A DNA stretch of 32,000 bases from an uncultured archaeon (GTDB taxonomy: Archaea; Iainarchaeota; Iainarchaeia; Iainarchaeales; Iainarchaeaceae), in the NCBI GenBank assembly GCA_964577555.1, contig CAZNZM010000001.1:87278-119277 (forward strand). The letters are read 5' to 3'. This document shows, piece after piece, positions 8,452-23,587 of the stretch. The notes beneath the pieces are model-generated. The model was not told the origin of the DNA. It did no database searches and worked only from the letters and a program-made list of their open reading frames with translations. The stretch's first letter is position 1; each line of letters begins with the position of its first letter. Both the position numbers and the translations under genes were made by a program.

Positions 8452-8670
8452 GAGAACCCAATCCTCCCGAGGGAAAAAAACCCTTTAACTATATTTTTCT
8501 AAAAACAAATATTTATTATTAACCTGGTTTTGCAAAAAAAAATCAAGTTTTGGTTTTTAAAAATAGGGTTGATTTTTGGTGAATGGCAATTTACCTTGGA
8601 ATTCCTATTTTGGTTCGAATTGTTTGCCAATCTTTTTAAATTTGGATTTGTCAAATTTTATTTTGTAAAG

Positions 8671-9438: not shown

Positions 9439-9464
9439 GAAAAAATTAAATAGAAAAAATTTTC

Positions 9465-9600
9465 AAAAAAAATCTAAAAAAAATAGCTCGCAAAAAAAAC
9501 ACAAAAAAAACAAAAAAACAACCAAAAAAATAAAACAAAATTTCAAACAAAAAAATAAAAAAAATAAAAAGGCTCGCAAAAAAACAAACCAAAAAATTTT
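9465..9600. repeat. Second, diverged copy of the A-rich repeat segment seen at 1-152 (two GCTCGC cores about 86 nt apart)
   Basis: 9472-9495 (atctaaaaaaaatagctcgcaaaa) differs from nt 1-24 at one position. acacaaaaaaaa, caacc and a second ggctcgcaaaaa core (9571-9582) follow, as in locus 1. It fills the gap between convergent pgi and gap. Confidence 0.7.
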
Positions 9601-9620
9601 GGTGAAGTTTCTGAAAAAAT

Positions 9621-10610
9621 TCATAATTTCAAGTGTTTTATGACATCAACTATTCTTTGCGAATAACCCATTTCGTTGTCATACCATGAAACCACTTGAA
9701 CCAAAGTTCCGCCAATTACTTTTGTTAGTTTTGAATCAAATATGCTTGATCTCGTGTCACCAATTATGTCTGTTGAAACTATTGGTTCGTCAGTATAACC
9801 TAAAATTCCTTTTAGGCTTCCTTCAGCCGCTTTTTTCATTTCTGCGTTGATTTCTTCGGCAGTAGTGGGTTTTTCCAATTCTGCGGTTATGTCAACAAGC
9901 GAGCCAGCCGGGACTGGAACTCTTATGGCTTTGCCGTCTATTTTGCCTTTGAGTGCGGGAATTACTTTTGCAGCGGCTTCGGAAGCGCCTGTTTTGGTTG
10001 GAACTATGTTAATTGCCGCAGCCCTTGCCCTTCTGAAATCTTCGTGTGTTGCGTCAACAAGGTTTTGGTCATGAGTATATGCATGAATCGTCGTCATAAA
10101 GCCTCTTTTTATTCCGAATTTTTCATTCAGTACTTTCAAGACTGGCATGAGACAATTGGTAGTGCATGAAGCATTATCTATTACAGGATCTGAAAGCTCC
10201 AATTTATCAGTATTCACGCCCAATACAAAGCTTTGCATGTCTCCTTTGCCGGGAGCTGAAATTATTACTTTTTTTGCCCCGGCTTTTATGTGTCCGCCAG
10301 CATCGTCCTTTCCCCTGAAAACACCTGTGCTTTCCACAACTACATCAACACCAAGTTCTTTCCAAGGAAGCTGTTCAGGTTTTACCCTTAACGAAATGAC
10401 TTTGACTTTTTTCCCATCAATGACAAGATTATCGCCTTCCAAAGAAACCGAGCCTTTGTATTTGCCATAAACCGAATCATATTTGAACAAATATTTTGCA
10501 CTTTCAGCGCCTTGCGGATGATTCACAACCCAATCAATACCTTCTTCCCTTATACCTTGCCTTAAAACAAGCCTTCCAATTCTTCCAAACCCGTTTATTG
10601 CAACTTTCAT
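9621..10610 (-). CDS. gap: Glyceraldehyde-3-phosphate dehydrogenase, class I (bacterial/eukaryotic type)
   Basis: KVAINGFGRIGR Rossmann motif, active-site SCTTNCL, C-terminal WYDNEMGYS. GGAGGT abuts the first ATG (10616), so the second ATG (10610, MKVAING...) is the likelier start. Confidence 0.95.
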   Translation of the reverse strand: MKVAINGFGRIGRLVLRQGIREEGIDWVVNHPQGAESAKYLFKYDSVYGKYKGSVSLEGDNLVIDGKKVKVISLRVKPEQLPWKELGVDVVVESTGVFRGKDDAGGHIKAGAKKVIISAPGKGDMQSFVLGVNTDKLELSDPVIDNASCTTNCLMPVLKVLNEKFGIKRGFMTTIHAYTHDQNLVDATHEDFRRARAAAINIVPTKTGASEAAAKVIPALKGKIDGKAIRVPVPAGSLVDITAELEKPTTAEEINAEMKKAAEGSLKGILGYTDEPIVSTDIIGDTRSSIFDSKLTKVIGGTLVQVVSWYDNEMGYSQRIVDVIKHLKL

Positions 10611-10770
10611 TAACATACCTCCAAAACCGCTAAAGTATAAAATTAAGTAAAAACCTTAATTTAAACTTATAAGGAAAAAATTGTAATTTCTACAAAAGTA
10701 CTTTTTTACAAAAAAATAGGTTTTTTTAACTTTAAAAAAGCTAAAATACTAAATAGACAATTTATAATGC

Positions 10771-11742
10771 ATGGTTGAAAATATTGGAGGCATTCTTGTT
10801 CCGGAAACAAAGCGTTTTGATTCCAAGCAAGCTATAATTGGCTTAGCAATAAGCGCCATATTAATAGCCACGCCATTATACGTTTACAAACCTGGCTTAG
10901 ACACTGAAAATTTTATTTTATTATTAATTGCTGGAATAACAATGTCCTATTTTATTGCGTCTTCGCTGCAACAACTCAAAGAAAAAAAATTTGAAAATCT
11001 GGATTATTTAGACAAGGCAATTATTATTGCATTGCTAACTGTGATATTTATAGAAGCAATTATATTGACGTTATTTTTTATATCCCCAAACTTATTAGGA
11101 ATAAAAATTGAACAACCTGAAAACCCAAAAATAAGTTCCAATTACGGCTTGGCTGCGGAAAATTATAGGAAAGCAATTTTAACGGGCAATGAGGAATTAA
11201 TAAATGAAAAATTGAAAGAATTTGAAGAAGAGCAAAACAATGCATCTGAAAAGCTTGAAGAGGAATGCAAAAGCGACGAATACAAAGCAAGCGAGTTGTG
11301 CTTGCAAAAATCAAAAGCTGTTCAATGCCACAAAAAAATTGTTTCGGCTTTGGCTGAGCTTGGCAAACAACGTTCACAAAACCAAAACCAAACAGAAAAT
11401 TGCAAATCGGTTTTATCAAAAAATTCTTTGGCAGAATGCGTAATGGTGCTTGAAGCTTTGGGACTTCCGTCTAATTACTTTAATAATTTGTGTTCTCAGA
11501 ATCAATCAGGCGATTCCGCAAGCCAAGAAGACAACGTTGAAAACCCACAAAGCTATACTGATAAAAACGTGGAGTATGACCCAAACGAAGGAAAAAGCGC
11601 ATGTACTTTTTTCAACGGGTATTTTTGTGAACTTGAAGAAATATGTCCTGGCAATTTGCTTGATTATGGTTCAACAGACAGGTGTTGCGAAATTCCGTGT
11701 GTAAAAAAATACGAAGAAGAAATTAATGATTACAATGAATAA
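10771..11742 (+). CDS. Hypothetical polytopic membrane protein with helical Cys-containing region and C-terminal Cys-knot
   Basis: 323-aa ORF with about 4 N-terminal TM helices and a charged helical segment with spaced Cys. The C-terminus is CTFFNGYFCELEEICPGNLLDYGSTDRCCEIPC. No family recognised. Confidence 0.6.
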   Translation: MVENIGGILVPETKRFDSKQAIIGLAISAILIATPLYVYKPGLDTENFILLLIAGITMSYFIASSLQQLKEKKFENLDYLDKAIIIALLTVIFIEAIILTLFFISPNLLGIKIEQPENPKISSNYGLAAENYRKAILTGNEELINEKLKEFEEEQNNASEKLEEECKSDEYKASELCLQKSKAVQCHKKIVSALAELGKQRSQNQNQTENCKSVLSKNSLAECVMVLEALGLPSNYFNNLCSQNQSGDSASQEDNVENPQSYTDKNVEYDPNEGKSACTFFNGYFCELEEICPGNLLDYGSTDRCCEIPCVKKYEEEINDYNE

Positions 11743-11756
11743 CAGAGTGATTAGAA

Positions 11757-12713
11757 ATGCAAAAAAATTTCAGAAAAATAGTGTTTTTTATTATATTATT
11801 AATTGTGTATTTTACAGGAATTGCTTTTGCAGAGTGTTTAAACGCTGCGGATTGCAGTGAAGGAAAAATTTGTGTTGCGGGAGAATGTTCTGTTTGCAAT
11901 CAAAAAAACTCAGGATTGCCTTGTAGTGACGATTCGAAAAACGATTATAACAACGATGGCATATGCACTTATGACGGTTTATGCTCAGAGTCAGTGGTTT
12001 GTCTTGACATTTCATTGAACAAGCATTTTTTTGGTTGCCAGTGTGCCAACGGCTCGCCGTGTAGCATAAGGCCTTTTGGTGAATTCAATACAAACGGGGT
12101 TTGTCTAAACGAAAAATGCGAATCAAAGTATTGTTCGTCTTCCAACCCTTTAATTCCGCAAATTTGCAGTTCAATTGAAATAACGTGTTCTGAATCAAAT
12201 GAAGGCAAATTTTGCGATTATGTTGGGGATGGGGAATTTGCCCCTGAAGGAAAACGCTGTTATTCTGGAAATTGCTCAAAAGAGGCTATATTACAAAAAA
12301 AAGAAGAGGGTGAAAAACAAGAAAAAAAAATCGACAATCCTTTTTTTCCTAATCAAGAAACAATCCAAGAAAATACTTCTAAGATAAGTTTGGCAGAACT
12401 CATTTTTGGAAAAATAATTTTTGACAGAAATTTGTTCGCTGCGTTCATGCTTTTGGCACTAATAGGCTCTTATTTTGTATTCTTGAAAACCGGGATGTTT
12501 TTTCCAACAAATGCTTCAACAACCCAAAAACAATTAGCATTGGTTAAAAGATTTCTTGCGGCCGCCTTCCTCTTCCTATTGACTTTCCAATTAGGCAGGC
12601 TTTCAAATTATTATATTTCATTTTTGTTCGTCATACTTGTAGTGCTATCAATAATAATGTCCGACAATTACTTGAGAAAAGTAAAGGGGCAAAGGCAAGC
12701 AATAAAAGTTTAA
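11757..12713 (+). CDS. Secreted Cys-rich repeat protein with C-terminal membrane anchor
   Basis: Signal peptide MQKNFRKIVFFIILLIVYFTGIAFA-EC. Three Cys-rich modules (G-x-PC...NG-x-C...C). A K/E linker. Then 2-3 TM helices. GTGAT SD-like motif upstream. Confidence 0.7.
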   Translation: MQKNFRKIVFFIILLIVYFTGIAFAECLNAADCSEGKICVAGECSVCNQKNSGLPCSDDSKNDYNNDGICTYDGLCSESVVCLDISLNKHFFGCQCANGSPCSIRPFGEFNTNGVCLNEKCESKYCSSSNPLIPQICSSIEITCSESNEGKFCDYVGDGEFAPEGKRCYSGNCSKEAILQKKEEGEKQEKKIDNPFFPNQETIQENTSKISLAELIFGKIIFDRNLFAAFMLLALIGSYFVFLKTGMFFPTNASTTQKQLALVKRFLAAAFLFLLTFQLGRLSNYYISFLFVILVVLSIIMSDNYLRKVKGQRQAIKV

Positions 12714-12834
12714 GAAATTGAAAAAAAATCAGGACAATTTCCAAGGTATTATAACAAAAATTTCTAATAACAGAAAATCAACCAATTTATTAAATATTAA
12801 TTGTTATTTGTTTTATTTTAATGGCGGATAAAAT

Positions 12835-13803
12835 ATGTTGGATATAATTTCTTTCGGCTCTGCAACTGAAGATGTTTTCGTGCATGTTCCTAAAAGCAAT
12901 TTTGGCCAAAATGGTTGTATTTTTCACCCTGGAACAAAAATTGAAATAGAGGACATGGATTATTTTATTGGTGGCGGAGCAACAAATACTGCAGTTGGTT
13001 TTTCGCGTTTTGGCCTCAAAGCCGGGGCGGTATTTGCAATAGGTGATGATGAAAGCGGTGCAGCAGTTCTCAAGGAATTAAAGAAGGAAAAGGTGTATAC
13101 AAAAAATGCTTTGGTTGTAAAAGGCAAAAAAACTTCTTATTCGGTAATTCTCACGGGTTTTGGCAGGGACAGGGTTATTTTAGTTTATAGTTCTTCTACC
13201 GCGATGCTTAATAAAATCAGGATTAATTGGAAAAAAATCAAGGCTAAATGGTTTTACGTTTCTTCATTGCACGCTGAACCCAAAATGCTTAAGGAAATAG
13301 CAAGGCATGCAAAAAAAATTAATGCGAAAGTGGCATTTAACCCTGGACAAAAAGAGCTTGAGCTTGGAATTGGCGGAATAAAAAATATTTTTGGTAAGGT
13401 GAATATACTAATATTGAACAATCATGAAGCAATGAAGCTTACTGGTTCCGCCGATATTAAAAGGAATCTTGCAAAATTGCTTGAAATAGGAAAAGTAGTA
13501 GTTATAACCGAAGGACAAAATGGAGCTCACGCAACAGACGGAAATTTTGTTTATTCTATCAAGCCTTACGAAGTAAATGTAATTGATTCAACTGGAGCTG
13601 GCGATGCTTTTGGTTGCGGTTTTGTCGGGGCTTTTGTGAAAGGAAAAAGCATTGAGGATTGCATGAAATTCGGAACAGCCAACGCGTGTTCGGTTATCAT
13701 GTATTTGGGCACAAAAAACAAGTTGCTTCGCTGGAACGAAGTGCCGAAATTTATTAAGGAACATTCAAGAAACGGAAGACAGGTTGAAGTGAAAAATTTG
13801 TGA
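12835..13803 (+). CDS. PfkB-family carbohydrate/nucleoside kinase (ribokinase-like)
   Basis: N-terminal GSATEDVFV, GGGATNTA, and PfkB signature DSTGAGDAFGCGFV near the C-terminus. Substrate cannot be assigned from sequence alone. Confidence 0.9.
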   Translation: MLDIISFGSATEDVFVHVPKSNFGQNGCIFHPGTKIEIEDMDYFIGGGATNTAVGFSRFGLKAGAVFAIGDDESGAAVLKELKKEKVYTKNALVVKGKKTSYSVILTGFGRDRVILVYSSSTAMLNKIRINWKKIKAKWFYVSSLHAEPKMLKEIARHAKKINAKVAFNPGQKELELGIGGIKNIFGKVNILILNNHEAMKLTGSADIKRNLAKLLEIGKVVVITEGQNGAHATDGNFVYSIKPYEVNVIDSTGAGDAFGCGFVGAFVKGKSIEDCMKFGTANACSVIMYLGTKNKLLRWNEVPKFIKEHSRNGRQVEVKNL

Positions 13804-13839: not shown

Positions 13840-14514
13840 TCATTCGTCTTTGTCAGAGTATTGTTCGTATTTTGAGTTGTTGAATCTGTAAAGAAATTTT
13901 TTTATTTTGCTTTTTTTATAAGTGTAAAAGTCGAGGACTTCGTGTTTTTGGCCGCAAAATTTGTTGAAATTTACTTCTTGACAGGGATCAAGAATGCAAA
14001 AGGTTCCTTGTGATTGATTTTCTTCTTTTTGATCAGGATTTTTTCTAATCTGATTCTCGTTTGTTTTCATTGTTGTAGGCAGTATTGTAACAACAAAAGC
14101 ATGGGGTAAGCCGTTTTCCAATTCTGCTATTACTACTTCTGCATTTTCGTCTCCAAGGCTGTAAAGCAATGAGCAAAGGAAAATCGCTTTGTCTTCGTCG
14201 TCAGCCACTTTTTCTGAAACTATTTCTTTTGGAGTAAGCCAATACGAAATTCCAATGTCAGGCTCAAAAGTTGTTATTTCATCCCGTACAAAGTTGAAAC
14301 ATTTTTCTGCGGCTTTTGAATAATTGACAGGGTATAAATAGTTTTCTCCTGAAAATGATTGAACAATTGATTGTATTGTAAGGTCATTCTTTGTAACCAT
14401 TGCTTTTATTTCGCCAACAGTTTTCTGTTCTTTCTCGTTTATTAGGTTAGAATAGCGATTTACCAGTATTTTAAGTATTTTTGCAAGAAGTTCAGGGTTA
14501 CTTTCATCACCCAT
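13840..14514 (-). CDS. Hypothetical cytoplasmic protein, possibly transglutaminase-like fold with the nucleophile Cys replaced
   Basis: 224-aa ORF. YWLTPKEIVSEKVADDEDKAIFLCSLLYSLGDENAEVV...LPHAFVV...ILDP resembles the W-x-P...G-x-C-x-D-x-A...H...D layout of transglutaminase-like proteases, but has D where the Cys is expected. The functional call is tentative. Confidence 0.45.
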   Translation of the reverse strand: MGDESNPELLAKILKILVNRYSNLINEKEQKTVGEIKAMVTKNDLTIQSIVQSFSGENYLYPVNYSKAAEKCFNFVRDEITTFEPDIGISYWLTPKEIVSEKVADDEDKAIFLCSLLYSLGDENAEVVIAELENGLPHAFVVTILPTTMKTNENQIRKNPDQKEENQSQGTFCILDPCQEVNFNKFCGQKHEVLDFYTYKKSKIKKFLYRFNNSKYEQYSDKDE

Positions 14515-14676
14515 AATAAATAATATTTATTTGGTAAAGTGGTTAAAACTTGCTTTTTTGAAAAACGATGAAATAAAAGGTTTTTAATGCCAAAACGGCT
14601 TAAATAACTAAAAAAAAGCTTTTTTTCGGAAAAAAGTAATATTTAATTGTCCAATTGCCTTATTTTATAGATTTTT

Positions 14677-15093
14677 ATGGAAAAATTCAAGAGAAAAAAC
14701 GGACAGGTTGCTTTTGAATATTTGATAGTAACGGGGTTTTTTTTGTTGGTTGCCGGAACTTTTTTTATATATGCAATTGTAACCGTGAATTCTTCTCTTG
14801 GAAGCCAACAAGGCAACGATGCGGTTTCAGTGATAGCAAGCAACGCAGATTTTGTAGCATCTTTGGGAAGTGGCAGCAACATAGTTTTTGACGTGGTTTT
14901 TCCAGACAATAGTACCAACTTGCAAATTTATGAAAAACAAGTAAGGCTTGTGGTTGGCTCTGGCGATAACGCCTCCAGTTTTTACGCTTATACAAAAGCA
15001 AATATGACTCCAACAACTATTCCGGTTGAAGGCGGAAAGCGTTATTTGAAAGCTGTTTTTTTTGATGGTAATGTCTTGGTGGTGGCAGAATGA
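14677..15093 (+). CDS. Prepilin-like protein 1 (class III signal peptide)
   Basis: MEKFKRKNG-QVAFEYLIVTGFFLLVAGTFFIYAIV: basic leader, G-Q site, E at +5, hydrophobic helix. First gene of the coupled cluster. AT-box atatttaat lies about 35 nt upstream. Confidence 0.8.
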   Translation: MEKFKRKNGQVAFEYLIVTGFFLLVAGTFFIYAIVTVNSSLGSQQGNDAVSVIASNADFVASLGSGSNIVFDVVFPDNSTNLQIYEKQVRLVVGSGDNASSFYAYTKANMTPTTIPVEGGKRYLKAVFFDGNVLVVAE

Positions 15094-15446
15094 AAGGACA
15101 AAGCTCTGCTGAAGCGCTTATAGGAGTTGCATTTATATTGTTAGTATTGCTGGTTGTTATTTGGCAAAGCATTGAAATGGAGTCAAAAAGAAAAATGGTT
15201 GAAAATTTAGAAATATCGAAAAATGAGTGTTTTAAAATCCAAGGAGCAATATTAGCGGTTTATAGTGTTCCGGAAAATTCCCAAATAGAAATTTTTTCAA
15301 GTGTTGATTTCAATATTTCTGGGGAAAAAATAATAATGAATGGATTCAATTGCGATCATGTTGGGAGTCCTATTAATAAAAATTTGAAAAAAGGAAATGT
15401 CAGAATAAGAAAATCAAATGGTGGATTTGATGTTAGCAACTTCTAA
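15090..15446 (+). CDS. Prepilin-like protein 2 (class III signal peptide)
   Basis: MKG-QSSAEALIGVAFILLVLLVVIW. The start overlaps the upstream stop (ATGA at 15090-15093). Confidence 0.75.
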   Translation: MKGQSSAEALIGVAFILLVLLVVIWQSIEMESKRKMVENLEISKNECFKIQGAILAVYSVPENSQIEIFSSVDFNISGEKIIMNGFNCDHVGSPINKNLKKGNVRIRKSNGGFDVSNF

Positions 15447-15924
15447 AGGGCAAGGATTAATAATAGATTTTTCTCTTGGGTTTTTCGTATTTATAATAAT
15501 TTTCATTACAATAACAAATGCATTCAATTCAAAAATAGAGGATATAAACAAAAAAAACGATTTGGAGGCAATGCGAATAAAAGCCGGAAATTCTATGAAC
15601 TTGCTTATTAGGTCTCCTGGAGAGCCAAGTAATTGGGAAAACCTGCCAATTTCTTCGGTAAAATACATAGGCTTGGCATCCAATGACAGAAATATATTGG
15701 AAACAAAACTTTCAGCGTTTTCTAATCTCGGAGAAAATTATTTTGAAGGAAAAAGAAAAATAGGTTTGGCGGAATATGATTTCTTTTTTGAATTCCAAGG
15801 GGTTGATGATGTTAATGCCGGTTTGGAGCCTTTTGGCGATATTGACAAGGTTGTTGAAACAAGAGTAGTAAGCTACAAGGGGGAGAGTGCAATTGCAAGA
15901 CTCGTTGTTTATAAAAGCGGATAA
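15418..15924 (+). CDS. Prepilin-like protein 3 (class III signal peptide)
   Basis: (MVDL)MLATSKG-QGLIIDFSLGFFVFIIIFITI. ATG 15418 or in-frame ATG 15430. Overlaps the upstream gene. Confidence 0.7.
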   Translation: MVDLMLATSKGQGLIIDFSLGFFVFIIIFITITNAFNSKIEDINKKNDLEAMRIKAGNSMNLLIRSPGEPSNWENLPISSVKYIGLASNDRNILETKLSAFSNLGENYFEGKRKIGLAEYDFFFEFQGVDDVNAGLEPFGDIDKVVETRVVSYKGESAIARLVVYKSG

Positions 15925-18487
15925 AGGTTTTGTTTTTTCAATGGATTCGCTTGTAGCTGCCATTGCTGTAGTTGGAGCAATAATTATTTTAAGCCAACAA
16001 GCTTATGTGTCGCTTGAAGTGGATGTGCAAACCCCAAAAATAACAGATGACGCTATTTTTTCGCTTGAACAAACAGGTTATTTAGCAAATACTTTGGATT
16101 CAAACAATGAAACAGAATCGGCAGTACTTATAAGGCAAAAACTGCTTGAAAGCCTTCCTCCCGGCTTTGACGCCAATGTCACCGTCACTACATATTATAT
16201 AGACAAACAAGCTTGTGCTTCGGAAAAAACTTTTGAAGCTTGCTTTCCAGATGAGAACAGGTTCAGTGGTTATGCTGGCGAACCGGCTCCAAAAGAAAGT
16301 TTTTCTTTCAAAAAATTTTTGTTAAGAAAGCAGGCGCCTGGTGATTGCAATGTTGCATACATGGTTTTTTCAGAACCTGAAGAAAAAATATTGGAAATAA
16401 TTACAGAATCTTATAATGAACACAAACCAGAAGCCTTGTTTGATGCAAATGCTATTAATGCAGTATTTGATGTAAATGTAAATCCTGACAATGAAATAGT
16501 ATGCGATCAAAACGTTAATGTTACTCTTTCAATCAGGATTCCGAAAGATGTCAGAAAAGCAGTGGATATTATGCAGGTTTTTGACAGAAGCGGTTCAATG
16601 AATGATTCAACGGTTTTAAGAGGCGAACTAGGCAAATTCACTTACAACCAAGGAACTTATACTTATTATCAGCCCCCGCCTACTTGTTCAAATTATGGAA
16701 ATTGGATTCAAGTTGGGTCTTTCTATTTAAGTTATGATCATTCTTCAGAACAAATTGTCAATGTGTATATGCATTATACTGGTTATGATGGAAATTGCAC
16801 TTATCCAAGGCTTAGGGTTAGAAGGCCTAATGGAAATTGGGTTCCTGGAAGCAGCGGCACTTCAAGTGCATCGCCAATAAGGGTTGGTATTTCCAGCGCA
16901 AAAAAAGGTACTTATACTGTTTGGGCTTGGTCTGATGAAAATATATGGTACGATATAAATGGAAGTGGTCCTGGAATGCCAACTGGTTCTTATGGAAGTG
17001 GTTATTTAAGCGGTGGTACATATACCTATAGTTATCCGCCAATACAATGTACTTCTTATTCAAATTGGCAGACAATTACGACTTTTAATGTTGACCAAAA
17101 CTTTGCCGCAATAGAACCTTCAATGTTGTTTAATAGGAAAAATTCATCATATACCGGTTCTTGTTCTGGTTCAAGGTTTAGAATAAAAAGGCCTAATGGG
17201 ACTTACGTGCCTGATATTAATGGAACGACTTCAACACAAATTACTGTGTCAAGCCCGACTGTTGGAATTCACACTATTGAAGCTTGGAGCGATAGAAACA
17301 TAACAAGCGATTTCAATGTTTATACAAGAAAACTTACTTCTGCAAAGGTTGCCGCAAAATCTTTTACTGATTCAAACTTATGGACTACTTCAGACAGCAT
17401 GGGTTTGGTTAGTTATTCAAGCAGTGCAACTTTGTCAAGAACGCTTCTAAAACTTACTGATTCAAACAAGGCTCTTATAAAAACTTCAATTGATTCTCTC
17501 ACTGCTTCAGGCACAACTGCTACTGGCGATGCAATAGCTTTGGCGACGCAAGAATTGCAAAGCCAAAGAGCAAACCCTCTAAGCATTAAATTTCAAGTAC
17601 TTTTGTCGGATGGGCAAAGCAACACTGGAATGTCTCCATTTACAGCTGCTGAACAGGCAAAAAATGCAGGAATAATAATATACACAATAGGTTTTGGAAC
17701 TGATGTAAATGCATATGAATTAAGTACAATTGCAAATATTACCGGCGGAAAATATTATTATACTTCTGACGCAAATACGCTTAATGAAATTTATCAATTG
17801 ATTGCTTTGGAAGTTGCTGAAATGGCAAACGATTCAAACGTTGTTGTGCCAATATATTCTGGAACTTTAATAGTAAACGACGGAAATGGGGTAATACAAG
17901 ACGGAAATTTGGTATTCAATGCAGGATCAATAACTGCAAGCACACCTTGGAGCACTACTTATACATTAAACTTTCCTTGTTTGAACCCCAATGTTTGCAC
18001 TGCATCAGCATTCACTTTTCCGGGCCCGGGTTCCATGTTTATATATGTTGACAGCAATGGAATTACAAGAAATGTTGATTTCAACGCATCAAAAACAGTT
18101 TCATTCAAAAAAAGAGATTTAAATGTAGAGTTTACCGGTGGGACTGTCTTGGGCAAAGACAATGTTGTTGTGGATTTGTTAGTGAAAAACACAGGACACC
18201 TTGATGCAAACTCAACCGACTTAAAACTATACCTGAATAGCTTGTTGTCTTCACCAAAACAAATAATCGAAGTTCCGCCGCTGTGTTCAACATATACGCC
18301 TGGTTGTACTAACAATAGTACAATATTTCAAGGCATAAACCTGGATTCCGAGGGTTTGATATACGGTTCTTTAAATGACGCCAATACTATAAGCGAGTGC
18401 CCAATAGGCAATATAGCTGCAATTAATTGTACTGGCGGTCCATTGACTCAAATATATTCAATAAAATACGTGATTTGGAGGAAATGA
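15887..18487 (+). CDS. Large prepilin-like protein carrying a vWA/MIDAS domain split by a tandem-duplicated insert, plus a CARDB/Ig-like C-terminal region
   Basis: N-terminus ...FIKADKG-FVFSMDSLVAAIAVVGAIIIL (GTG 15887, or TTG 15893 seven nt after GGGGGAG). MIDAS DRSGS at 16583-16597. vWA blocks GLVSYSSSA, LTASGTTATGDAI, VLLSDGQSN, IYTIGFG. The C-terminal segment DLNVEFTGG...VVVDLLVKNTGHLDANSTDLKLYLN is CARDB-like. Confidence 0.85.
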   Translation: MQLQDSLFIKADKGFVFSMDSLVAAIAVVGAIIILSQQAYVSLEVDVQTPKITDDAIFSLEQTGYLANTLDSNNETESAVLIRQKLLESLPPGFDANVTVTTYYIDKQACASEKTFEACFPDENRFSGYAGEPAPKESFSFKKFLLRKQAPGDCNVAYMVFSEPEEKILEIITESYNEHKPEALFDANAINAVFDVNVNPDNEIVCDQNVNVTLSIRIPKDVRKAVDIMQVFDRSGSMNDSTVLRGELGKFTYNQGTYTYYQPPPTCSNYGNWIQVGSFYLSYDHSSEQIVNVYMHYTGYDGNCTYPRLRVRRPNGNWVPGSSGTSSASPIRVGISSAKKGTYTVWAWSDENIWYDINGSGPGMPTGSYGSGYLSGGTYTYSYPPIQCTSYSNWQTITTFNVDQNFAAIEPSMLFNRKNSSYTGSCSGSRFRIKRPNGTYVPDINGTTSTQITVSSPTVGIHTIEAWSDRNITSDFNVYTRKLTSAKVAAKSFTDSNLWTTSDSMGLVSYSSSATLSRTLLKLTDSNKALIKTSIDSLTASGTTATGDAIALATQELQSQRANPLSIKFQVLLSDGQSNTGMSPFTAAEQAKNAGIIIYTIGFGTDVNAYELSTIANITGGKYYYTSDANTLNEIYQLIALEVAEMANDSNVVVPIYSGTLIVNDGNGVIQDGNLVFNAGSITASTPWSTTYTLNFPCLNPNVCTASAFTFPGPGSMFIYVDSNGITRNVDFNASKTVSFKKRDLNVEFTGGTVLGKDNVVVDLLVKNTGHLDANSTDLKLYLNSLLSSPKQIIEVPPLCSTYTPGCTNNSTIFQGINLDSEGLIYGSLNDANTISECPIGNIAAINCTGGPLTQIYSIKYVIWRK
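16652..17323 (+). repeat. Intragenic tandem duplication (two modules, 16652-17014 and 17015-17323) inserted inside the vWA domain
   Basis: The protein copies share GTYTY-x-x-PP-x-x-C-x-x-Y-x-NW ... YTG-x-C ... R-x-R-x-x-RPNG-x-x-VP ... G-x-x-T-x-x-AWSD-x-NI. Confidence 0.8.
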
Positions 18488-18488
18488 A

Positions 18489-19430
18489 GTGCAAAAAGGA
18501 ATTATTTTCACGATTATGGCTTTGGTTCTAATAGCCACAATAGCCACGCTATACATGTCAGAAAAAGAGGTAGAGAAGGGAAGGAGAGAAGCGTTGATTA
18601 AAAATAGTTCCTTCAACAAGGTGTCTTCAAAATATAGTGATATAAAACAAAGCATGCTTTCCTTGCCTTTGGCTGGAAAAGAAAAGGAAAACGCTGAAAG
18701 AATTCTTCCTTTTAATTATGGCGTTGACGGGAATTCTTTTTGGGTTGGCTTTGATTTGCCTGATTCAAGCAACAAGACACAAACTTATCTTGAAACCTTG
18801 AATGCTGCAAAAATTTTTTTGGACAATGAATGGAGAAGCGAAGGAGTTGCAATTAATGCTTCATTTCCATTGCCTTATTCTTGGGGTGCTACAAATTCAA
18901 GCGTTTCATTTTTAGTAATGCCGCAATGCATGAAATTTTTGTTAAAAGACGAAAACAACGTGTCTTTTGAATTCAAATGCCAAGATTATGAAATTTCAAA
19001 TGCAAAAAAAATTGACATAAACATATCTCTAAAGCCGGGGTTGGATTTCAATTCAATGGATTGCAAAATAAACGATTATTTGTCATGCAACCAAAATTAT
19101 GATTATAATAGTTATGACAACAGACCTTACATCAATATAAAATTCCTTGACCAAAATTGCACTTCTTGTTTTATTCCTTACAAAAAAATAAGAACACATT
19201 TTGACCCTTCTGAAGAAAATTTTTTGGAACTAAAATGTTCAGGCGCGAATTGCAAAAACCCGCCAATGGATATTAATTTTTCCAATTCTATAGAAATTTC
19301 TTATAGCGGGAAAAAAATAGAGGTAAAATACAACATTGATTTTAATTCAAAAATAACCGAGTTTTTGCTTGGTGATGCAAATTTTTCAGCCACTGATGTT
19401 TATTTCGGGGCAAGAAGGTGGAATAATTGA
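18489..19430 (+). CDS. Prepilin-like protein 5 (class III-type N-terminus), Cys-containing globular part
   Basis: GTG 18489 lies 7 nt after GGAGG (18477-18481) and 1 nt after the vWA gene stop. N-terminus MQKG-IIFTIMALVLIATIATLY. Six or more Cys in the C-terminal half. Confidence 0.7.
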   Translation: MQKGIIFTIMALVLIATIATLYMSEKEVEKGRREALIKNSSFNKVSSKYSDIKQSMLSLPLAGKEKENAERILPFNYGVDGNSFWVGFDLPDSSNKTQTYLETLNAAKIFLDNEWRSEGVAINASFPLPYSWGATNSSVSFLVMPQCMKFLLKDENNVSFEFKCQDYEISNAKKIDINISLKPGLDFNSMDCKINDYLSCNQNYDYNSYDNRPYINIKFLDQNCTSCFIPYKKIRTHFDPSEENFLELKCSGANCKNPPMDINFSNSIEISYSGKKIEVKYNIDFNSKITEFLLGDANFSATDVYFGARRWNN

Positions 19431-20512
19431 AAAATATTTTTTCAACCATTCTAGCTTTTTTTATAATTTTTTTTAGTGGATGCGCAAGCATATACGCGGA
19501 GCCACCTTCTTTAGAAGTCAATATAAAATCCGGACAATACATTGAAGGTGAAGAAATAAGTTTGGAAATTATTGCAAAAAATTCCCAATCGATAAAAATT
19601 TTTTTAGGAGAAAAAACCGAAGTTGTTGAATGCAACAATAATTATTGTTCAATAAGCAAAAAACTGAATTTAAAACAAGGTGTTTATAAAATAAAAGTCG
19701 TTGCAATAGGCGATGGCGGTAAAAAAGAAGAAACGGCAACAGTAGCAGTTTTAGGCTCTTCCAAAAGATGCGTAGAAGGATTGCTTGAAGGGCAATGTTC
19801 TTCTGAAAAACCGAAAATGTGCATTAATGGGGTTCTCAAGGACAAATGCTCTGTTTGCGGATGTGATAATGGGGCAAAATGCGTCGGAGAGTATTGCGAG
19901 ATTTTAATGCCAAAGGCAAGAAAAATCGAATTGGAATATCCTAAAAAAGTCGGAGAATCACAGCCTTTTAGAATTCTTGGAAAAATATTTTTTGAAGGTT
20001 TGGTTGGTTCAAAAAAAGCGGTTGTGAAAATTGTTTTAGGTGAAACCGAATTTATTAATGAAATTTTTATAAACACAAATGAAAAAATGGTTTCTGAATT
20101 TGAGGTTTTGATTCCTGCGATTAGGAAAGGAAAACATGATTTGAGAATTGAAATTTATGAAAACAATGAAAAAGAAAAACCGATAATAACTTATTTTGAA
20201 AAAGAAGCGATTTTAGTGGTTGAAAAGGGTGATAAATTGCCTGCTCCTAAAAACCTGAGTGGTTTTTCTGAGGGAAACGACATAATATTGAATTGGAATG
20301 AAGTTAATGGGGCAAACTCTTATAATATATACAAAAGCATTGATGCAAACCCTGCATTCATTTCCTATAAAGTAATCGGAGTTGCTTCCGGCGAAAATTC
20401 TTTTGTATTACAAGAACAAAAAAAAGGGACTCATTTTTTTGTGGTTACTGCGGTTGATATTTTTGGAATTGAAAGCGATTATAGTAACGTAATTGCCATA
20501 AATGTAAATTAG
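19427..20512 (+). CDS. Putative lipoprotein with Ig-like region, Cys-rich knot and C-terminal fibronectin type III domain
   Basis: The TTG start overlaps the upstream stop (TTGA). Lipobox-like FFSGC. Cys block CVEGLLEGQCSSEKPKMCINGVLKDKCSVCGCDNGAKCVGEYC. Fn3-like LPAPKNLSG...ILNWNEVNGANSYNIYKS...FFVVTAVDIFGIESDYS. Confidence 0.75.
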   Translation: MKNIFSTILAFFIIFFSGCASIYAEPPSLEVNIKSGQYIEGEEISLEIIAKNSQSIKIFLGEKTEVVECNNNYCSISKKLNLKQGVYKIKVVAIGDGGKKEETATVAVLGSSKRCVEGLLEGQCSSEKPKMCINGVLKDKCSVCGCDNGAKCVGEYCEILMPKARKIELEYPKKVGESQPFRILGKIFFEGLVGSKKAVVKIVLGETEFINEIFINTNEKMVSEFEVLIPAIRKGKHDLRIEIYENNEKEKPIITYFEKEAILVVEKGDKLPAPKNLSGFSEGNDIILNWNEVNGANSYNIYKSIDANPAFISYKVIGVASGENSFVLQEQKKGTHFFVVTAVDIFGIESDYSNVIAINVN

Positions 20513-20572
20513 ATGTTTATGCAAAGCAATAAATATTAAGTAATTCAACCAAGTATTAGCAAAGGTGAATAT

Positions 20573-21181
20573 ATGTCCCTGTTTGAAAAAATTGCAAAGA
20601 TTTTGCCTGGAAAAAAACCTGAAAATGAAAAATTAGAGCAAAGTTCAATATATGGTTCTAATGATACTGATATAAGCACTAAATATTCAAGCCAAAGCGT
20701 TGGAAAAAGCCCTGTGAATTCAATGAAAAACGATAAAATGCAAAGTTTTCAAGATAAAACAATAAATGAACAATTTAAAGAAAAGGAAATTAAGCTGCAA
20801 AAAAGAGTTGAGACTCTCAAAAATCCTCAAAAAATTAAAATGAACGAATTAAAAACTGAAAAAAAAGAAGTTCAAATTAAGAAAGAAGAGGAAAAAACGA
20901 ACAATAAAACTTATTTGGAAAACAATGAAAACAAAAATTTCATAGAAACCGACTTTGACAAAGTTGTTTCATATATAGCACAACATGGCAAAGCATCCTT
21001 TACTCAAATTTCAAGAGACCTTGGGCTTCCATGGAATAGAATTGAGGAATGCAGCAATATTTTAAGAAATGAAAAACAAATTGAAATTATTTATCTTCCT
21101 TTTGGCGATCCAATAGCAACGGTTGTAGGCTATTCTGAAAAAAACAAGGAAACGGATTTGAGAAGGCGCAGGGTGGCGTAA
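20573..21181 (+). CDS. Low-complexity protein with C-terminal winged-helix/HTH-like domain, translationally coupled to the pilus ATPase
   Basis: AGGTGA SD lies 4 nt before the ATG. The N-terminal two thirds is K/E/N/Q-rich. The C-terminal DFDKVVSYIAQHGKASFTQISRDLGLPWNRIEECSNILRNEKQIEIIY has wHTH spacing. The stop overlaps the next start (TAATG). Confidence 0.65.
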   Translation: MSLFEKIAKILPGKKPENEKLEQSSIYGSNDTDISTKYSSQSVGKSPVNSMKNDKMQSFQDKTINEQFKEKEIKLQKRVETLKNPQKIKMNELKTEKKEVQIKKEEEKTNNKTYLENNENKNFIETDFDKVVSYIAQHGKASFTQISRDLGLPWNRIEECSNILRNEKQIEIIYLPFGDPIATVVGYSEKNKETDLRRRRVA

Positions 21182-22689
21182 TGCAACAAGAAAAGCCTAT
21201 AAAAGAATATGAAATTTCTAATGGCAGTGCAAAATTTCTAATTAGAATTACTTATAAGCCCGGGGACTTTGTAAGAACCTATGAATTGGTGTTGCCTGAA
21301 TATGGTATAGGCACAAAAGCCCTTATTGAAAACATGAAAAGAGTAATAATATCTGACGAATCGCTTAAAGCAGAAAAAATGCTTGAAGCCAAGGAAATAG
21401 ACAGCATAAGAGCCATTTTTAAGGAAAAATCAGAGAAAATGCTTGAAAACGAACTTCCTAAAACTGATGAAAAAACCAGGAATATGCTTACTGAAATTCT
21501 GATAAACGAAATGCTGGGCATTGGTAAAATAGATTTTTTGCTTCTTGACGGAAACCTTGAAGAAATAGTTGTTAACAATTCGCAAGAACCTATTTGGGTT
21601 TATCACAAGGAATTTGGTTGGTTGAAAACCAATGTGGTGCCAGAGTCTGAAGAGCAAACTCTTAATTGGGCTAATATAATAGCAAGGCGTGGCGGGAAAC
21701 AAATCACCGTACTCAACCCTTTATTAGATACTCATCTTGTGACTGGAGACAGAGCTAATGCAACGCTTTTTCCAATTAGCAGCAAAGGTAATACAATAAC
21801 AATAAGGAGATTCAGACGGGAACCGTGGACGGTAACTGATTTTATAAGCAACAGAACAACAACCAGCGAAGTCATGGCTTTGATTTGGATGTGCATACAA
21901 TATGAAATGAACATGATTCTTTCAGGCGGCACTGCATCTGGAAAAACAAGTTTCATGAACATTTGTCTTCCGTTCATACAACCTAACCACAGAGTTATAA
22001 CAATAGAAGACACGAGAGAACTAATGTTGCCGGAATTTCTTCATTGGGTGCCAATGACTACAAGAGAAGCAAATGCTGAAGGAAAAGGCGAAGTTACGAT
22101 GCTTGATTTGCTTGTAAACAGTTTAAGACAAAGACCCGACAGGATAATCGTGGGTGAAACAAGAAGACAAAAAGAAGCGGAAGTAATGTTTGAAGCAATG
22201 CATACGGGGCACAGCGTATATACTACGTTCCACGCTAACACTGCTGAAGAAACCATAAGAAGATTTGTCAGTCCACCTATTGAAATACCGCCAACTGTTC
22301 TTGACTCAGTACATCTTAATGTAGTAATGTTCAGAAACAGAAGGCTTGGAGTAAGAAGGGTTTTGCAAGTGGCTGAATTCATTCCGGAAAAAAGGGGAAA
22401 CGAAGAAACTTTGAAAGCAAACACTCTTTACAGGTGGCACGCAGGCGATGACTCAATTACAAAAGATTCTGAAAGCATAAGGTTGTATGATGAACTTTCA
22501 TTGCACACTGGCTTGACTTATGATGAAATAAACAAAGATTTGACAATGAAGAAAAAAATTCTTGATTGGCTTGTAAAAAACGACATAAGACACATTTCAA
22601 AAGTAGGTGCTGTAATGGCTAAATATTATATGGATGAAAAAGAGATTTCCAGAATAGTTGAAAGAAACCTCAAACCTGATTTCATATGA
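21181..22689 (+). CDS. Type IV filament assembly ATPase (GspE/VirB11/PilB-ArlI superfamily, T2SSE)
   Basis: Walker A GGTASGKTS (21925-21951), Asp box ITIEDTREL, Walker B RPDRIIVGETR (from about 22141), His box GHSVYTTFHAN. The 502-aa length is typical of archaeal pilus/archaellum ATPases. Confidence 0.95.
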   Translation: MQQEKPIKEYEISNGSAKFLIRITYKPGDFVRTYELVLPEYGIGTKALIENMKRVIISDESLKAEKMLEAKEIDSIRAIFKEKSEKMLENELPKTDEKTRNMLTEILINEMLGIGKIDFLLLDGNLEEIVVNNSQEPIWVYHKEFGWLKTNVVPESEEQTLNWANIIARRGGKQITVLNPLLDTHLVTGDRANATLFPISSKGNTITIRRFRREPWTVTDFISNRTTTSEVMALIWMCIQYEMNMILSGGTASGKTSFMNICLPFIQPNHRVITIEDTRELMLPEFLHWVPMTTREANAEGKGEVTMLDLLVNSLRQRPDRIIVGETRRQKEAEVMFEAMHTGHSVYTTFHANTAEETIRRFVSPPIEIPPTVLDSVHLNVVMFRNRRLGVRRVLQVAEFIPEKRGNEETLKANTLYRWHAGDDSITKDSESIRLYDELSLHTGLTYDEINKDLTMKKKILDWLVKNDIRHISKVGAVMAKYYMDEKEISRIVERNLKPDFI

Positions 22690-23585
22690 ACAAAAAAAAT
22701 TTAGGAAAAATACCTTTTATGCCGATTCCGTCACAAATCATTATGGCTGTGACAAACAATTTTCTTGGCGTAGGCGGTGTCGTCTCAAAATTTTTTCCGA
22801 AATTGGAAGAATCTTTGGTTCAAGCGGATTTTGAAATACAAAAAGAAAGATATAGCGCGATTATAGCACTGGGATTTTTTATTTATTTAATACTTGGATT
22901 TTTAATTTGTTATTTATTTGCGATGCAATTTCAACCAAAAAACTCTTTTATAATAGGCATTCTTGGGGGTTTTTTTGCAGGAATTCTGGTGGCAATCCAA
23001 ATAGCTTTTTATCCTGCAATACAAGCAAAAAAAAAGATAAGAGGAATTGAAAGAAACCTTTTGTTTGGACTTAGAACAATATTGGTTGAAATAAAATCCG
23101 GAGTAACTCTTTTTGATGCGATTAATCTGGTTGCACAAGGAAATAATGGCGAATTAAGCAAAGAATTTTCCAAAGCGGTAAGAAAAATACAAACTGGAAC
23201 ATATCAAAACGTGGCGCTTGAAGAAATGGCTGAAAACAACCCGTCGGTTTATTTTAGAAGGGCAATATGGCAACTTGTTAACGGGTTGAAGTCAGGTGGA
23301 GACATAAGTACAATAATGCAAAGCCTTGTAGACGGGCTTTCAAAAGAAAAAGCCAATCAAGTGAAAAAATACGGCAATACGCTCAAACTTTTTTCCTTGA
23401 TGTATATGATGCTTGGAGCAATAATACCCGCCCTCGGAATAACCTTTTTGATAATACTTTCAACTTTCCCAAGCATGACAATAAATGAAACGGTTTTTTG
23501 GGGTTTGTTCGGATTTTTGGCTTTGGGGCAATTCATGTTCCTTGGCATGATAAAATCAGCCAGACCAAGCCTTCTTGGTGATTAA
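22686..23585 (+). CDS. Pilus platform membrane protein, single T2SSF domain (TadB-like half)
   Basis: ATGA overlap with the ATPase stop. TM helices flank the T2SSF-type block LRTILVEIKSGVTLFDAINLVAQGNNGELSKEFSKAVRKIQTGTYQNVALEEMAENNPS...IWQLVNGLKSGGDIS. Confidence 0.85.
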   Translation: MNKKNLGKIPFMPIPSQIIMAVTNNFLGVGGVVSKFFPKLEESLVQADFEIQKERYSAIIALGFFIYLILGFLICYLFAMQFQPKNSFIIGILGGFFAGILVAIQIAFYPAIQAKKKIRGIERNLLFGLRTILVEIKSGVTLFDAINLVAQGNNGELSKEFSKAVRKIQTGTYQNVALEEMAENNPSVYFRRAIWQLVNGLKSGGDISTIMQSLVDGLSKEKANQVKKYGNTLKLFSLMYMMLGAIIPALGITFLIILSTFPSMTINETVFWGLFGFLALGQFMFLGMIKSARPSLLGD

Positions 23586-23587
23586 AA

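Follow-up and report, generated by a model that had tools for sequence, protein, structure and literature searches.

A pilin-like protein of Iainarchaeota with a von Willebrand factor A domain split beside its metal site by exchangeable insert domains

The gene described here lies at positions 15887-18487 on the + strand of a 32,000-nucleotide stretch of DNA from an uncultured archaeon (assembly GCA_964577555.1, contig CAZNZM010000001.1, positions 87,278-119,277; this whole stretch is called the window). It encodes a pilin-like protein of 866 amino acids (aa), in which a domain of the von Willebrand factor A (vWA) type with an intact metal ion-dependent adhesion site (MIDAS) is split by two tandem modules inserted directly beside this site. 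In related proteins the same position, termed the slot in the following, is filled with different domains, and the type of insert has been switched repeatedly. The gene is part of a type IV filament operon, which recurs in more than 40 genomes of Iainarchaeota, a lineage of the DPANN archaea. Our preferred interpretation, to which we assign a probability of about 0.6, is that the product of the vWA gene is a large minor-pilin-like subunit with an apical position (tip or priming) in a type IV pilus of the Epd-like or 'system 1' kind of these archaea.

The split vWA domain and its MIDAS

The initial annotation had placed a MIDAS signature, DRSGS, at nucleotides (nt) 16583-16597, two tandem modules behind it and canonical vWA sequence further downstream, and had assumed that both vWA segments belong to one domain. 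These assignments hold. The signature corresponds to aa 233-237 and lies within VDIMQVFDRSGSMNDS. In the native protein the Pfam VWA profile (PF00092) is matched by aa 499-637 at profile positions 34-173 of 174 (E=1.2e-20, 74.9 bits against a cut-off of 23.8), and the part of the profile that comprises strand beta1 and the DxSxS motif is missing from this match. When the insert was deleted in silico (aa 241-480 or, alternatively, aa 244-478), the profile was matched from position 1 to 173 with 96.6 (or 90.8) bits. In comparison, the C-terminal part alone reached 80.3 bits, and a construct with a shuffled N-terminal segment reached 80.0 bits, still starting from position 34. Splicing out the insert therefore gains 10-16 bits.

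The spliced domain aligns unbroken, from beta1 through alpha1, to the solved vWA structures of PTMP1 (4cn8), CLCA1 (6pyo) and ITIH4 (9c4f). Within this structure alignment 'vdimqvfdrsgsm' represents beta1 and the MIDAS loop, and 'RKLTSAKVAAKSF' represents helix alpha1. Furthermore, relatives with an almost empty slot match the VWA profile from its start, namely P0036 over positions 2-173 in one piece and P0067 over positions 1-117.

A full-length AlphaFold2 (AF2) model was calculated from a 48-sequence family alignment and has a mean predicted local distance difference test (pLDDT) value of 75, with values >90 over most of aa 481-866. It contains a confident strand beta1 at aa 226-233 (pLDDT ~87-92), and behind the insert the secondary structure elements follow in the canonical order alpha1-beta2-beta3-alpha2-alpha3-beta4-alpha4-beta5-alpha5-beta6-alpha6, the second vWA part being modelled at pLDDT >90. 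A Foldseek search of the model against vWA structures gave E-values down to 1.9e-13. The helix that normally follows the MIDAS strand had been reported as absent; it is rather displaced to a position after the insert, where KLTSAKVAAKSF forms alpha1 (H482-494).

The splice test, the structure alignment, the near-empty relatives and the order of the AF2 secondary structure together indicate that the two segments form one domain, which is split beside the MIDAS. The first part (16553-16606, + strand) holds beta1 and the first MIDAS loop, and the second part (aa 481-646, 17327-17824, + strand) runs from alpha1 through alpha6 and contributes the MIDAS residues Thr544 (17516-17518) and Asp575 (17609-17611). 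On the basis of the same four observations the insert is assigned to the beta1-alpha1 MIDAS loop, where it begins 2-3 residues past the last MIDAS serine and ahead of alpha1, and thus, in sequence, beside the metal site as had been supposed. It comprises 240 aa (16607-17326, + strand), its boundaries being taken from the family mapping and from the alignment of the spliced domain to solved vWA structures.

With D233, S235, S237, T544 and D575 the MIDAS is complete. Among 56 family members bearing an insert these residues are conserved in 54, 55, 55, 50 (with Ser in 5 more) and 55 proteins, respectively. Scored as 10-mers, the strands with DRSGSM (0.73) and LLSDGQ (0.74) are among the most conserved segments, and the third MIDAS segment, SGTTATGDAI, reaches 0.61. 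From this site, binding of a divalent metal ion by the vWA domain would be expected.

The insert of the window protein consists of two modules of ~110 aa. Copy 1 (aa 256-376, 16652-17014, + strand) includes a Gly/Ser-rich linker at ~354-376 as well as Cys267 and Cys304, and is recognized by the hidden Markov model (HMM) of the module at E=9e-36. Copy 2 (aa 377-479, 17015-17323, + strand), which is found by the same HMM, contains Cys388 and Cys426. A BLASTP alignment shows 37% identity over 104 aa (E=6e-23), so the copies are homologous. At the DNA level the two copies are strongly diverged, and the duplication is therefore old and not recent, which answers the question of dating raised in the initial annotation. 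In the module tree the two copies of the window are sisters, each being the closest relative of the other, which indicates a lineage-specific duplication; other lineages have duplicated the module independently. Every module copy carries a conserved Cys pair and a conserved G-W-S-D motif.

Modelled alone from a 39-sequence alignment, the module is all-beta with six main strands (pLDDT 84, predicted template modelling score (pTM) 0.77). Neither Pfam nor the PDB sequences gave a significant match, the best being 9bab (DUF1102) at E=0.09, and a Foldseek search of the model returned no match at E<=1e-3. The best fold matches, all of them weak, are the C-terminal beta-jelly-rolls of subtilisin-like proteases (Tk-SP 3afg, KP-43 1wmd and the Kex2 P-domain), as well as GOLD domains, TNF-like lectins, carbohydrate-binding modules (CBMs) and the collagen-binding domain of ColH (3jqw, template modelling scores 0.61/0.55), which we take to be a fold of the pre-peptidase C-terminal (PPC) superfamily. 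A PPC-like nature of the insert had been suggested before. At the sequence level it was not recovered, since only one of 39 module sequences matches PPC (PF04151), at E=0.15, and the two modules of the window do not match it; at the fold level a weak likeness remains, as seen for ColH. The safest label would be a beta-jelly-roll binding-type module, the model pointing weakly to PPC-type and protease C-terminal domains. Profile-profile comparison revealed no relationship of the module to the N-terminal or C-terminal domain of the same protein. A search of a 5.8-billion-protein index with the two-module insert and with the 39-sequence module profile found nothing, and is uninformative as the known positives P0001 and P0006 were missed as well.

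A variable slot in a conserved scaffold

An exhaustive HMMER search of 1.84 billion representatives identified 102 proteins at E<1e-30. In 61 of these the same order of an N-terminal domain, the DxSxS strand, the slot, the remaining vWA domain and the C-terminal domain is present. Within these 61 members the distance from DxSxS to alpha1 takes discrete values. A slot of 9-19 aa is almost empty, 115-162 aa correspond to a single module, 232-244 aa to two modules as in the window protein, 290-302 aa to LVIVD repeats and 368-594 aa to larger combinations, and the longest slot, with 1567 aa, is found in P0032. Sorted by content, LVIVD inserts are found in 26 members, one module in 19, two and three modules in five each, ten modules in one, and an almost empty slot in the remaining five. 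The survey of homologues for the presence of the insert, which had been proposed earlier, hence gives 56/61 with and 5/61 practically without an insert. An iterated profile of the window module detects 116 copies in 58 proteins, arranged in arrays of 1 to ~10.

Some slots have a more elaborate content. That of P0002 contains six LVIVD repeats (Pfam E=1.7e-43), accompanied by matches to beta-propeller models. In the 2207-aa protein P0032 the 1567-aa slot accommodates two ConA-like lectin domains (Laminin_G_3, E=2e-39) besides ~ten jelly-roll modules. In P0003 a DUF4082-like domain (weak match) is nested inside the LVIVD insert.

For a tree of the scaffold, neighbour-joining on distances was applied to the flanking domains with 200 bootstrap replicates. 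The insert type does not fit this phylogeny: five clades, supported at 93-98% bootstrap, mix module-type and LVIVD-type proteins. One of them unites the window protein with the LVIVD-type protein P0004 and is recovered in 187/200 replicates. The bootstrapped trees indicate that at least five switches of insert type are required. In line with this, the scaffold of the window protein is 47-53% identical to that of LVIVD-type proteins, and its modules are nearest to those of proteins with a more distant scaffold. A comparison of P0006 (three modules) and P0027 (two modules) gives a scaffold identity of 77% against 51-57% for positionally matching modules. Judged from these sequences, the modules diverge faster than the scaffold and the copy number changes quickly.

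Point hypervariability of the insert was considered as a further source of variation and was rejected. It predicts an excess of substitutions, which is absent in strain variants at 92% identity, where 7.9% of the insert positions are substituted compared to 6.7-10.4% elsewhere. Diversification therefore proceeds by domain exchange and by changes in copy number and not by point hypervariability.

Of the five members with an almost empty slot, four (P0021, P0036, P0042 and P0060) have a degenerate MIDAS, with the motifs DLSRP, DQSRP, DRSRP and DRSTG; the second Ser is replaced by Pro or Ala, and the Thr by Asn. The fifth, P0067, has kept DRSGSM, but displays an ordinary Sec-like N-terminus in place of the pilin-like leader. 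P0067 also harbors a Cys-rich insertion of ~35 aa past the DG of strand beta4.

Beyond the slot, a second site of insertion into the vWA domain, between alpha3 and beta4, appears to be present in P0083, in P0098 and in the locus L043 (7995-11624; a 1209-aa orthologue from the complete genome CP064981). In L043 this site is occupied by another copy of a ~130-aa domain, which is also nested in the LVIVD insert of the same protein and whose counterpart in P0003 is the domain with the weak DUF4082 match, and the Pfam VWA match is split in two there.

Terminal regions and the filament operon

The vWA gene is one long open reading frame (ORF), supported by the ORF list, by an identical protein called in a Joint Genome Institute (JGI) metagenome and by the same domain order in the 61 family members. 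Two alternative in-frame TTG starts, at 15893 and 15905, are as plausible as the listed start. The first has GGGGAG 7 nt upstream, and the second corresponds to the JGI metagenome gene call, in which the identical protein P0001 has 860 aa.

The N-terminus shows a class-III-like signal (15887-15994, + strand), which was identified by hydropathy and motif: a short charged leader ending K-G (G14) precedes a hydrophobic helix of ~20 residues (aa 16-36 in the AF2 model), and leader and helix read MQLQDSLFIKADKG|FVFSMDSLVAAIAVVGAIIIL. The motif [GA]-F-x-F-x-x-[DE] is found in 48/61 family members, with the G at a median position of ~12 and a preceding K in 34 proteins, and the family consensus reads G|F-x-F-x-x-[DE]. 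This is the only hydrophobic segment of the protein; past residue 60 the maximum KD19 (Kyte-Doolittle hydropathy) is 1.17. Neither a C-terminal anchor nor a sortase-type sorting signal with a membrane anchor is present in the protein, whose C-terminus is ...YVIWRK. It contains 14 Cys, with an even number in each domain, and 17 N-x-S/T sequons where 12.5±3 are expected. The single N-terminal hydrophobic segment, the C-terminus, the Cys pattern and the sequons would fit an extracellular protein. A BatA/BatB-type aerotolerance protein is ruled out by operon context and domain architecture; the NCBIfam BatA match is partial (71.8 bits against a cut-off of 380).

The helix is followed by the N-terminal domain (aa 37-222, 15995-16552, + strand), which is a candidate pilin-like head. 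The AF2 model places helices at 44-62, 65-72 and 75-89, followed by strands at 94-104, 125-130 and 139-148, with pLDDT values mostly of 80-95 except for aa 160-186. Four Cys (110, 119, 154 and 206) are conserved in this domain.

Behind the vWA domain an all-beta region is located (aa 647-866, 17825-18484, + strand), with six conserved Cys and pLDDT values mostly >90. Its second half (~aa 744-845, nt 18116-18421, + strand) is CARDB-like. The CARDB/Ig-like (immunoglobulin-like) tail noted earlier is thus seen at the level of the family and not of the single protein: the window protein reaches 15.9-16.2 bits with Pfam CARDB (PF07705) against a cut-off of 22.7, whereas 12/20 relatives match it (best 6.6e-6) and the family profile matches PDB 3idu at E=1.2e-3. 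The protein closes with a strand at aa 854-866 (18446-18484, + strand; AF2 strand 854-865), which ends ...QIYSIKYVIWRK. Here, W864 is invariant in 61/61 members, and in 57/61 the C-terminus is <=2 aa away from it.

The vWA gene is the fourth in a tightly packed row of mostly overlapping genes, which extends on the + strand from 14677 to 24595. Upstream lie pilA-like (14677-15093), pilB-like (15090-15446) and pilC-like (15418-15924) genes, whose products have N-termini of the type ...G|Q followed by a hydrophobic helix, and which are kept in 26-41/45 related loci. For the pilA-like protein no match was found in the PDB. Downstream follows gene E (18489-19430, kept in 43/45 loci) for a 313-aa pilin-like protein starting MQKG|IIFT..., so that five consecutive genes encode a G-terminated leader plus hydrophobic helix. 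Gene F (19427-20512, 32/45 loci) encodes 361 aa with a signal peptide containing a lipobox-like FFSGC, a Cys-rich middle and a fibronectin type III (FN3)-like C-terminal stretch, and from these features is probably a secreted or lipoprotein-like protein. Gene G (20573-21181, 22/45 loci) encodes 202 Lys/Glu-rich aa with a faint helix-turn-helix match and overlaps the start of the ATPase gene by one base. The latter (21181-22689) belongs to the T2SSE family (Pfam T2SSE E=2.9e-32), its product being closest to afGspE of Archaeoglobus (2oap, 1e-66), then to FlaI and then to Tad CpaF. Two platform genes with one T2SSF domain each complete the row (22686-23585 and 23588-24595; E=1.4e-17 and 8.7e-13). 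The ATPase and platform genes are found 2.7 kb downstream and share the orientation of the vWA gene, an arrangement kept in up to 34/45 loci.

The gene order of a transglutaminase-like gene on the opposite strand, pilA, pilB, pilC, vWA, E, F, (G), ATPase and two platform genes is conserved across 45 loci. When one genome per species was scanned, relatives turned up in 42 loci, including two complete genomes. Almost all relatives are labelled as archaeon, Candidatus Iainarchaeum or Diapherotrites, and the window also encodes a Taw1-type wyosine enzyme and a cupin-type glucose-6-phosphate isomerase (GPI). The DNA therefore stems from a DPANN archaeon of the Iainarchaeota, as was expected from the earlier assignment of the protein to archaea.

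Epd-like pili are defined by an ATPase, two single-T2SSF platform genes and multiple pilins (Denise et al. 2019, PMC6668835), and correspond to 'system 1' of archaeal type IV filaments, which occurs in methanogens and DPANN (2026 survey, bioRxiv 10.64898/2026.04.22.720090). The gene content of the operon matches this definition, and within this filament locus of Iainarchaeota the vWA protein belongs to the conserved core.

A number of further observations concern the locus. An A/T-rich TATA-like element, ATATTTAA (~14640; region 14633-14676), lies ~30 nt upstream of the ATG of the pilA-like gene and would fit a promoter of archaeal type that serves the entire operon and leaves a very short leader. 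The transglutaminase/CEP76-peptidase-like gene (PF24656, E=7.5e-7; 13840-14514, - strand) adjoins the operon divergently in 28/45 loci, and a link to the pilus, for example in cross-linking or processing, is possible. Directly upstream of the operon a glycolysis cluster is found (7231-13803), consisting of phosphoglycerate kinase, cupin-type GPI, bacterial-type glyceraldehyde-3-phosphate dehydrogenase (GAPDH) and a PfkB kinase, and is syntenic in L002 and L031. Between the GAPDH and PfkB genes lie two unrelated ORFs without Pfam matches; in the 45 related loci, ORF 10771-11742 has no counterpart and ORF 11757-12713 has one (L004).

In the groundwater relative L002/L003 (14449-18754) an intein, recognized by Intein_splicing and a LAGLIDADG_3 homing endonuclease, splits the T2SSE ATPase gene, whose product thereby exceeds 1535 aa; the ATPase gene of the window (21181-22689) is free of an intein. 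In ~eight genomes (L043 at 4726-7481, and L024, L026, L029, L030, L040, L044 and L045) the pilB-like gene is expanded to encode a 528-aa pilin-like protein without a Pfam match, and an extra 447-aa ORF stands ahead of the pilC-like gene; these genes may provide a second large pilin-like subunit. One family member is located on a 5.3-kb contig (L025, JBDRPR010000028.1) binned as 'Bacteroidota bacterium', and two more are found in Micrarchaeota-labelled bins. These are probably binning errors and not transfers, because the contigs are short and the distribution is otherwise exclusively within Iainarchaeota. Elsewhere in the window, a 90-aa ORF (3490-3762, + strand) with a PRC-barrel-type look, judged by eye only, lies in an ORF-poor and strongly AT-skewed stretch (2800-4000). 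No tRNA or Rfam matches were found in the window.

Proposed role and known counterparts

If the vWA protein is an apical subunit of a pilus of the Epd-like type, its short K-G leader would be removed after G14 by a class III signal peptidase. The hydrophobic helix would then be the anchor that holds it in the core of the filament, alongside the other four pilin-like products of the operon. The N-terminal domain would form the pilin-like head, and the conserved C-terminal strand would possibly dock back on it. The remaining chain, which comprises the MIDAS vWA domain followed by the beta-sandwich/CARDB-like domains, would then be cargo displayed at the tip. The metal ion of the vWA domain would bind a carboxylate of the ligand, and the domain or domains in the first MIDAS loop would protrude next to the metal site and either provide specificity or narrow it. 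In the window protein two beta-jelly-roll modules would take this role, and in the relatives 1-10 modules, an LVIVD repeat array or lectin domains. Evolution would retarget the pilus by swapping or re-copying the insert, with the scaffold kept constant.

An archaeal modular pilin or tip adhesin had been proposed in the initial annotation. The type IV filament operon and structural matches to tip adhesins support this proposal, whereas cleavage of the signal, incorporation into a filament, a tip location, metal-dependent adhesion and a role of the insert in specificity are suggested by analogy with PilB, SpaC, PitA, Mfa5, CpaL and the 'adaptable tips' of Myxococcus.

The closest architectural analogue is CpaL, the TadG orthologue of Caulobacter crescentus. 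[quoted passage not shown] The same plan of leader, pilin-like N-terminal module and MIDAS vWA domain split by two tandem beta domains is seen in the window protein, with the N-terminal domain as the candidate pilin-like module, and the architecture is thus not without precedent. In both systems small minor pilins, an ATPase of the FlaI/CpaF clade and two single-domain platform genes are encoded together, and in both proteins the extreme C-terminus is conserved. The C-terminal strand of CpaL complements the pilin-like domain and is needed for piliation (bioRxiv 10.64898/2026.02.14.705861). By analogy with CpaL and GspK, the C-terminal strand of the window protein possibly docks back onto the N-terminal domain; given such docking, the protein would be built like a minor pilin of the GspK/CpaL kind, out of which the whole vWA-insert-CARDB part is looped.

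Nevertheless, there are clear differences. In CpaL the insert starts ~40 residues after DxTxS and is modelled pointing away from the MIDAS, whereas in the window protein it starts 2-3 residues after DxSxS and before alpha1. Unlike CpaL, the window protein is archaeal and carries an extra C-terminal beta/CARDB-like region of ~220 aa. A variable slot, which is present in the window family, is not described in the consulted passages on CpaL. Furthermore, membership in the TadG family at the sequence level was rejected. The window protein has no match to Pfam Tad (PF13400), TadE (PF07811) or Tad_C (PF09977), for which an annotated Burkholderia TadG served as positive control (Tad 2.2e-10, Tad_C 1.3e-14; a protein without a vWA domain). 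BLASTP found no similarity between the window protein and this TadG, which was reached via the ATPase, and tblastn against a plasmid collection for vWA-bearing TadG gave generic vWA matches to the C-terminal part only. A common ancestry of the vWA-bearing apical pilin with CpaL/TadG is possible nonetheless, because Tad systems derive from archaeal Epd-like systems (PMC6668835).

PilB of Streptococcus sanguinis is a second counterpart. Its vWA domain binds host proteins, its MIDAS is needed for pilus function, and PilB is a proven metal-dependent adhesin, which is probably located at the tip (PMC8179133). PilB (PDB 7b7p, structural match at E=6.4e-7) joins a pilin module to a MIDAS vWA domain behind a class III signal, as the window protein appears to do. 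Next to the MIDAS of PilB stand protruding 'arms', of which one is a small beta-sheet; these are short elaborations and not independently folded domains or arrays as in the window family. Moreover, PilB has a bacterial N-methylation-type motif (IPR012902) and belongs to a type IVa-like machinery in a monoderm bacterium, and no domain swapping in a fixed slot is described for it.

The tip proteins RrgA/SpaC/PitA and Mfa5 resemble the window protein in having a vWA/MIDAS domain with inserted arms and beta-sandwich domains. Among the structural matches SpaC (6m48) ranks second, with E=1.3e-12 over 472 aligned columns, and PitA (7w6b) and Mfa5 (6to1) come after it. In contrast to the window protein with its N-terminal helix and lack of a C-terminal anchor, these tip proteins depend on sortase or type V assembly and LPXTG-type signals, and no evidence of isopeptide domains was found in the window protein.

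Integrin beta3 and alphaM/beta2 are among the structural matches as well. In integrin alpha subunits a vWA I-domain is inserted into the propeller. LVIVD members of the window family likewise combine a MIDAS vWA domain with a beta-propeller by domain-in-domain insertion, and in 26/61 relatives the topology is inverted, with the LVIVD array inside the vWA MIDAS loop; the window protein itself has jelly-roll modules and not a propeller.

For the Kil Tad system of Myxococcus 'adaptable tips' have been described, in which a large minor pilin (KilN/TadG-like) is the backbone of the tip and an exposed variable domain is proposed to set the target specificity (PMC12075869). There, four alternative tip gene clusters per genome and a variable C-terminal domain provide the variation, in contrast to one conserved operon per locus with a variable insert in the vWA domain in the window family.

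Modular vWA pilins of bacteria (PilB) and a split vWA domain with tandem beta inserts (CpaL) are thus already known. The lineage-wide archaeal family, its fixed MIDAS-loop slot, in which jelly-roll arrays, LVIVD arrays and lectins have been exchanged at least five times, and the LVIVD array inside a vWA domain as the inverse of the integrin alpha topology appear to be new. The earlier statement that a described archaeal equivalent is not known is in line with the literature that could be searched, itself incomplete. In two archaeal type IV surveys (one of them bioRxiv 10.64898/2026.04.22.720090) vWA domains figure as regulators at most, and the modular-pilin survey of the PilB paper used a bacterial signature (PMC8179133).

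Several results weigh against an apical pilin subunit with a specificity-setting insert. The acidic residue stands at +6 (G|FVFSMD) and not at +5 as in the bacterial consensus (G|FTLIE rule), the leader presumably fails the strict FlaFind pattern, and the vWA protein matches no Pfam N_methyl or class III signal family at E<=0.1. The prepilin-like N-terminus of the initial annotation hence stands with respect to its class-III-like leader and single hydrophobic helix, but not with respect to the consensus position or a family match. To our knowledge, archaeal pilins in general do not follow the E5 rule. A prepilin peptidase (A24) gene is not among the window ORFs scanned. For the N-terminal domain, sequence and profile searches against Pfam and the PDB found no relative, pilins included, and no pilins are among the PDB structural matches for this part; the AF2 secondary-structure order, on which the candidate assignment is based, is compatible with a pilin-like head. 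In the full-length model the pTM of 0.52 leaves the arrangement of the domains uncertain, and residues 321-459, which is most of module 2, have pLDDT values <50. Finally, the lack of a substitution excess in the insert of strain variants belongs to these points.

The last two observations bear on the role of the insert. It may have no part in ligand binding at all, serving as a passenger or spacer that a permissive loop tolerates, or as a cap over the MIDAS, with its variability reflecting relaxed constraint instead of selection for new specificities. The even substitution rate between strains and the poor model of module 2 would fit such an explanation, as would the beta domains of CpaL, which are modelled pointing away from the MIDAS. 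However, the slot lies within the beta1-alpha1 MIDAS loop, 2-3 residues past the last MIDAS serine, and not after alpha1 as in CpaL. A folded insert is kept in 56/61 members, and 4/5 of those lacking one have also lost MIDAS residues. The slot contents are recognized binding folds, namely the LVIVD array (a beta-propeller by co-matching Pfam models), the ConA-like lectin and the jelly-roll, and each module has conserved Cys and Trp positions. We therefore regard an insert without a ligand role as rather unlikely.

A further explanation concerns the N-terminal helix. This could be an uncleaved signal anchor of a membrane-anchored accessory protein of the pilus machine, whose vWA ectodomain stabilizes, anchors or regulates the pilus, a role once proposed for bacterial TadG. 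The single N-terminal hydrophobic helix, the deviation of the leader from the canonical prepilin consensus and the lack of a peptidase gene in the window agree with this, and archaeal vWA regulators such as ArnB are among the structural matches (8s05, 5a8j). In contrast, the Gly at the end of the leader and the acidic residue six positions further on are conserved in the family, which is unexpected for a plain signal anchor, and the same N-terminal design recurs in the four pilin-like proteins encoded next to it. CpaL is now assigned to the tip complex, piliation requires its C-terminal strand, and the Cys pattern and size of the window protein fit an exposed adhesin. An accessory protein is accordingly unlikely, more so than an insert without a ligand role.

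Least probable of all is a short pseudopilus or bindosome-like structure, in which the vWA protein captures substrate (e.g. polymers or metal-complexed ligands) instead of mediating attachment: in Sulfolobus, sugar-binding proteins are likewise directed to the bindosome by class III signal peptides, some slots hold lectin-type domains (Laminin_G_3 in P0032), the module resembles binding domains of secreted proteases and CBMs, and glycolytic genes flank the operon, but the gene content is that of Epd-like/system 1 pili, which serve surface attachment in Methanococcus, the operon contains no transporter genes, and the glycolysis genes nearby, which lie on the opposite strand or apart from the operon, are probably unrelated neighbours.

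Going beyond an apical pilin subunit, the family might correspond in archaea to the apical minor pilin TadG/CpaL of the Epd-like/Tad lineage and possibly represent its ancestral form, with the MIDAS-loop slot as a programmable receptor-binding head and insert exchange retargeting the pilus to other hosts or surfaces. This proposal is tentative, and we consider it less likely to be right than wrong. If true, the LVIVD array within the vWA domain would be an inverted analogue of the integrin head.

Recombinant constructs of the vWA domain plus insert, insert swaps and MIDAS mutants can now be made, and the vWA scaffold with its permissive MIDAS-loop slot may be of interest for protein engineering. 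For CpaL and TadG the family provides a point of comparison, which bears on the question of whether an apical pilin with a vWA domain already existed before the transfer from archaea to bacteria that gave rise to the Tad pili. The idea of modular pilins, which has been surveyed with a bacterial signature only, is extended to archaea. For the recognition of partners or surfaces by DPANN archaea, and for attachment to them, a lineage-wide (Iainarchaeota), operon-conserved candidate for a pilus adhesin is now defined. Its likeliest specificity-setting part is a single loop at the metal site, which has repeatedly been filled with different binding domains.

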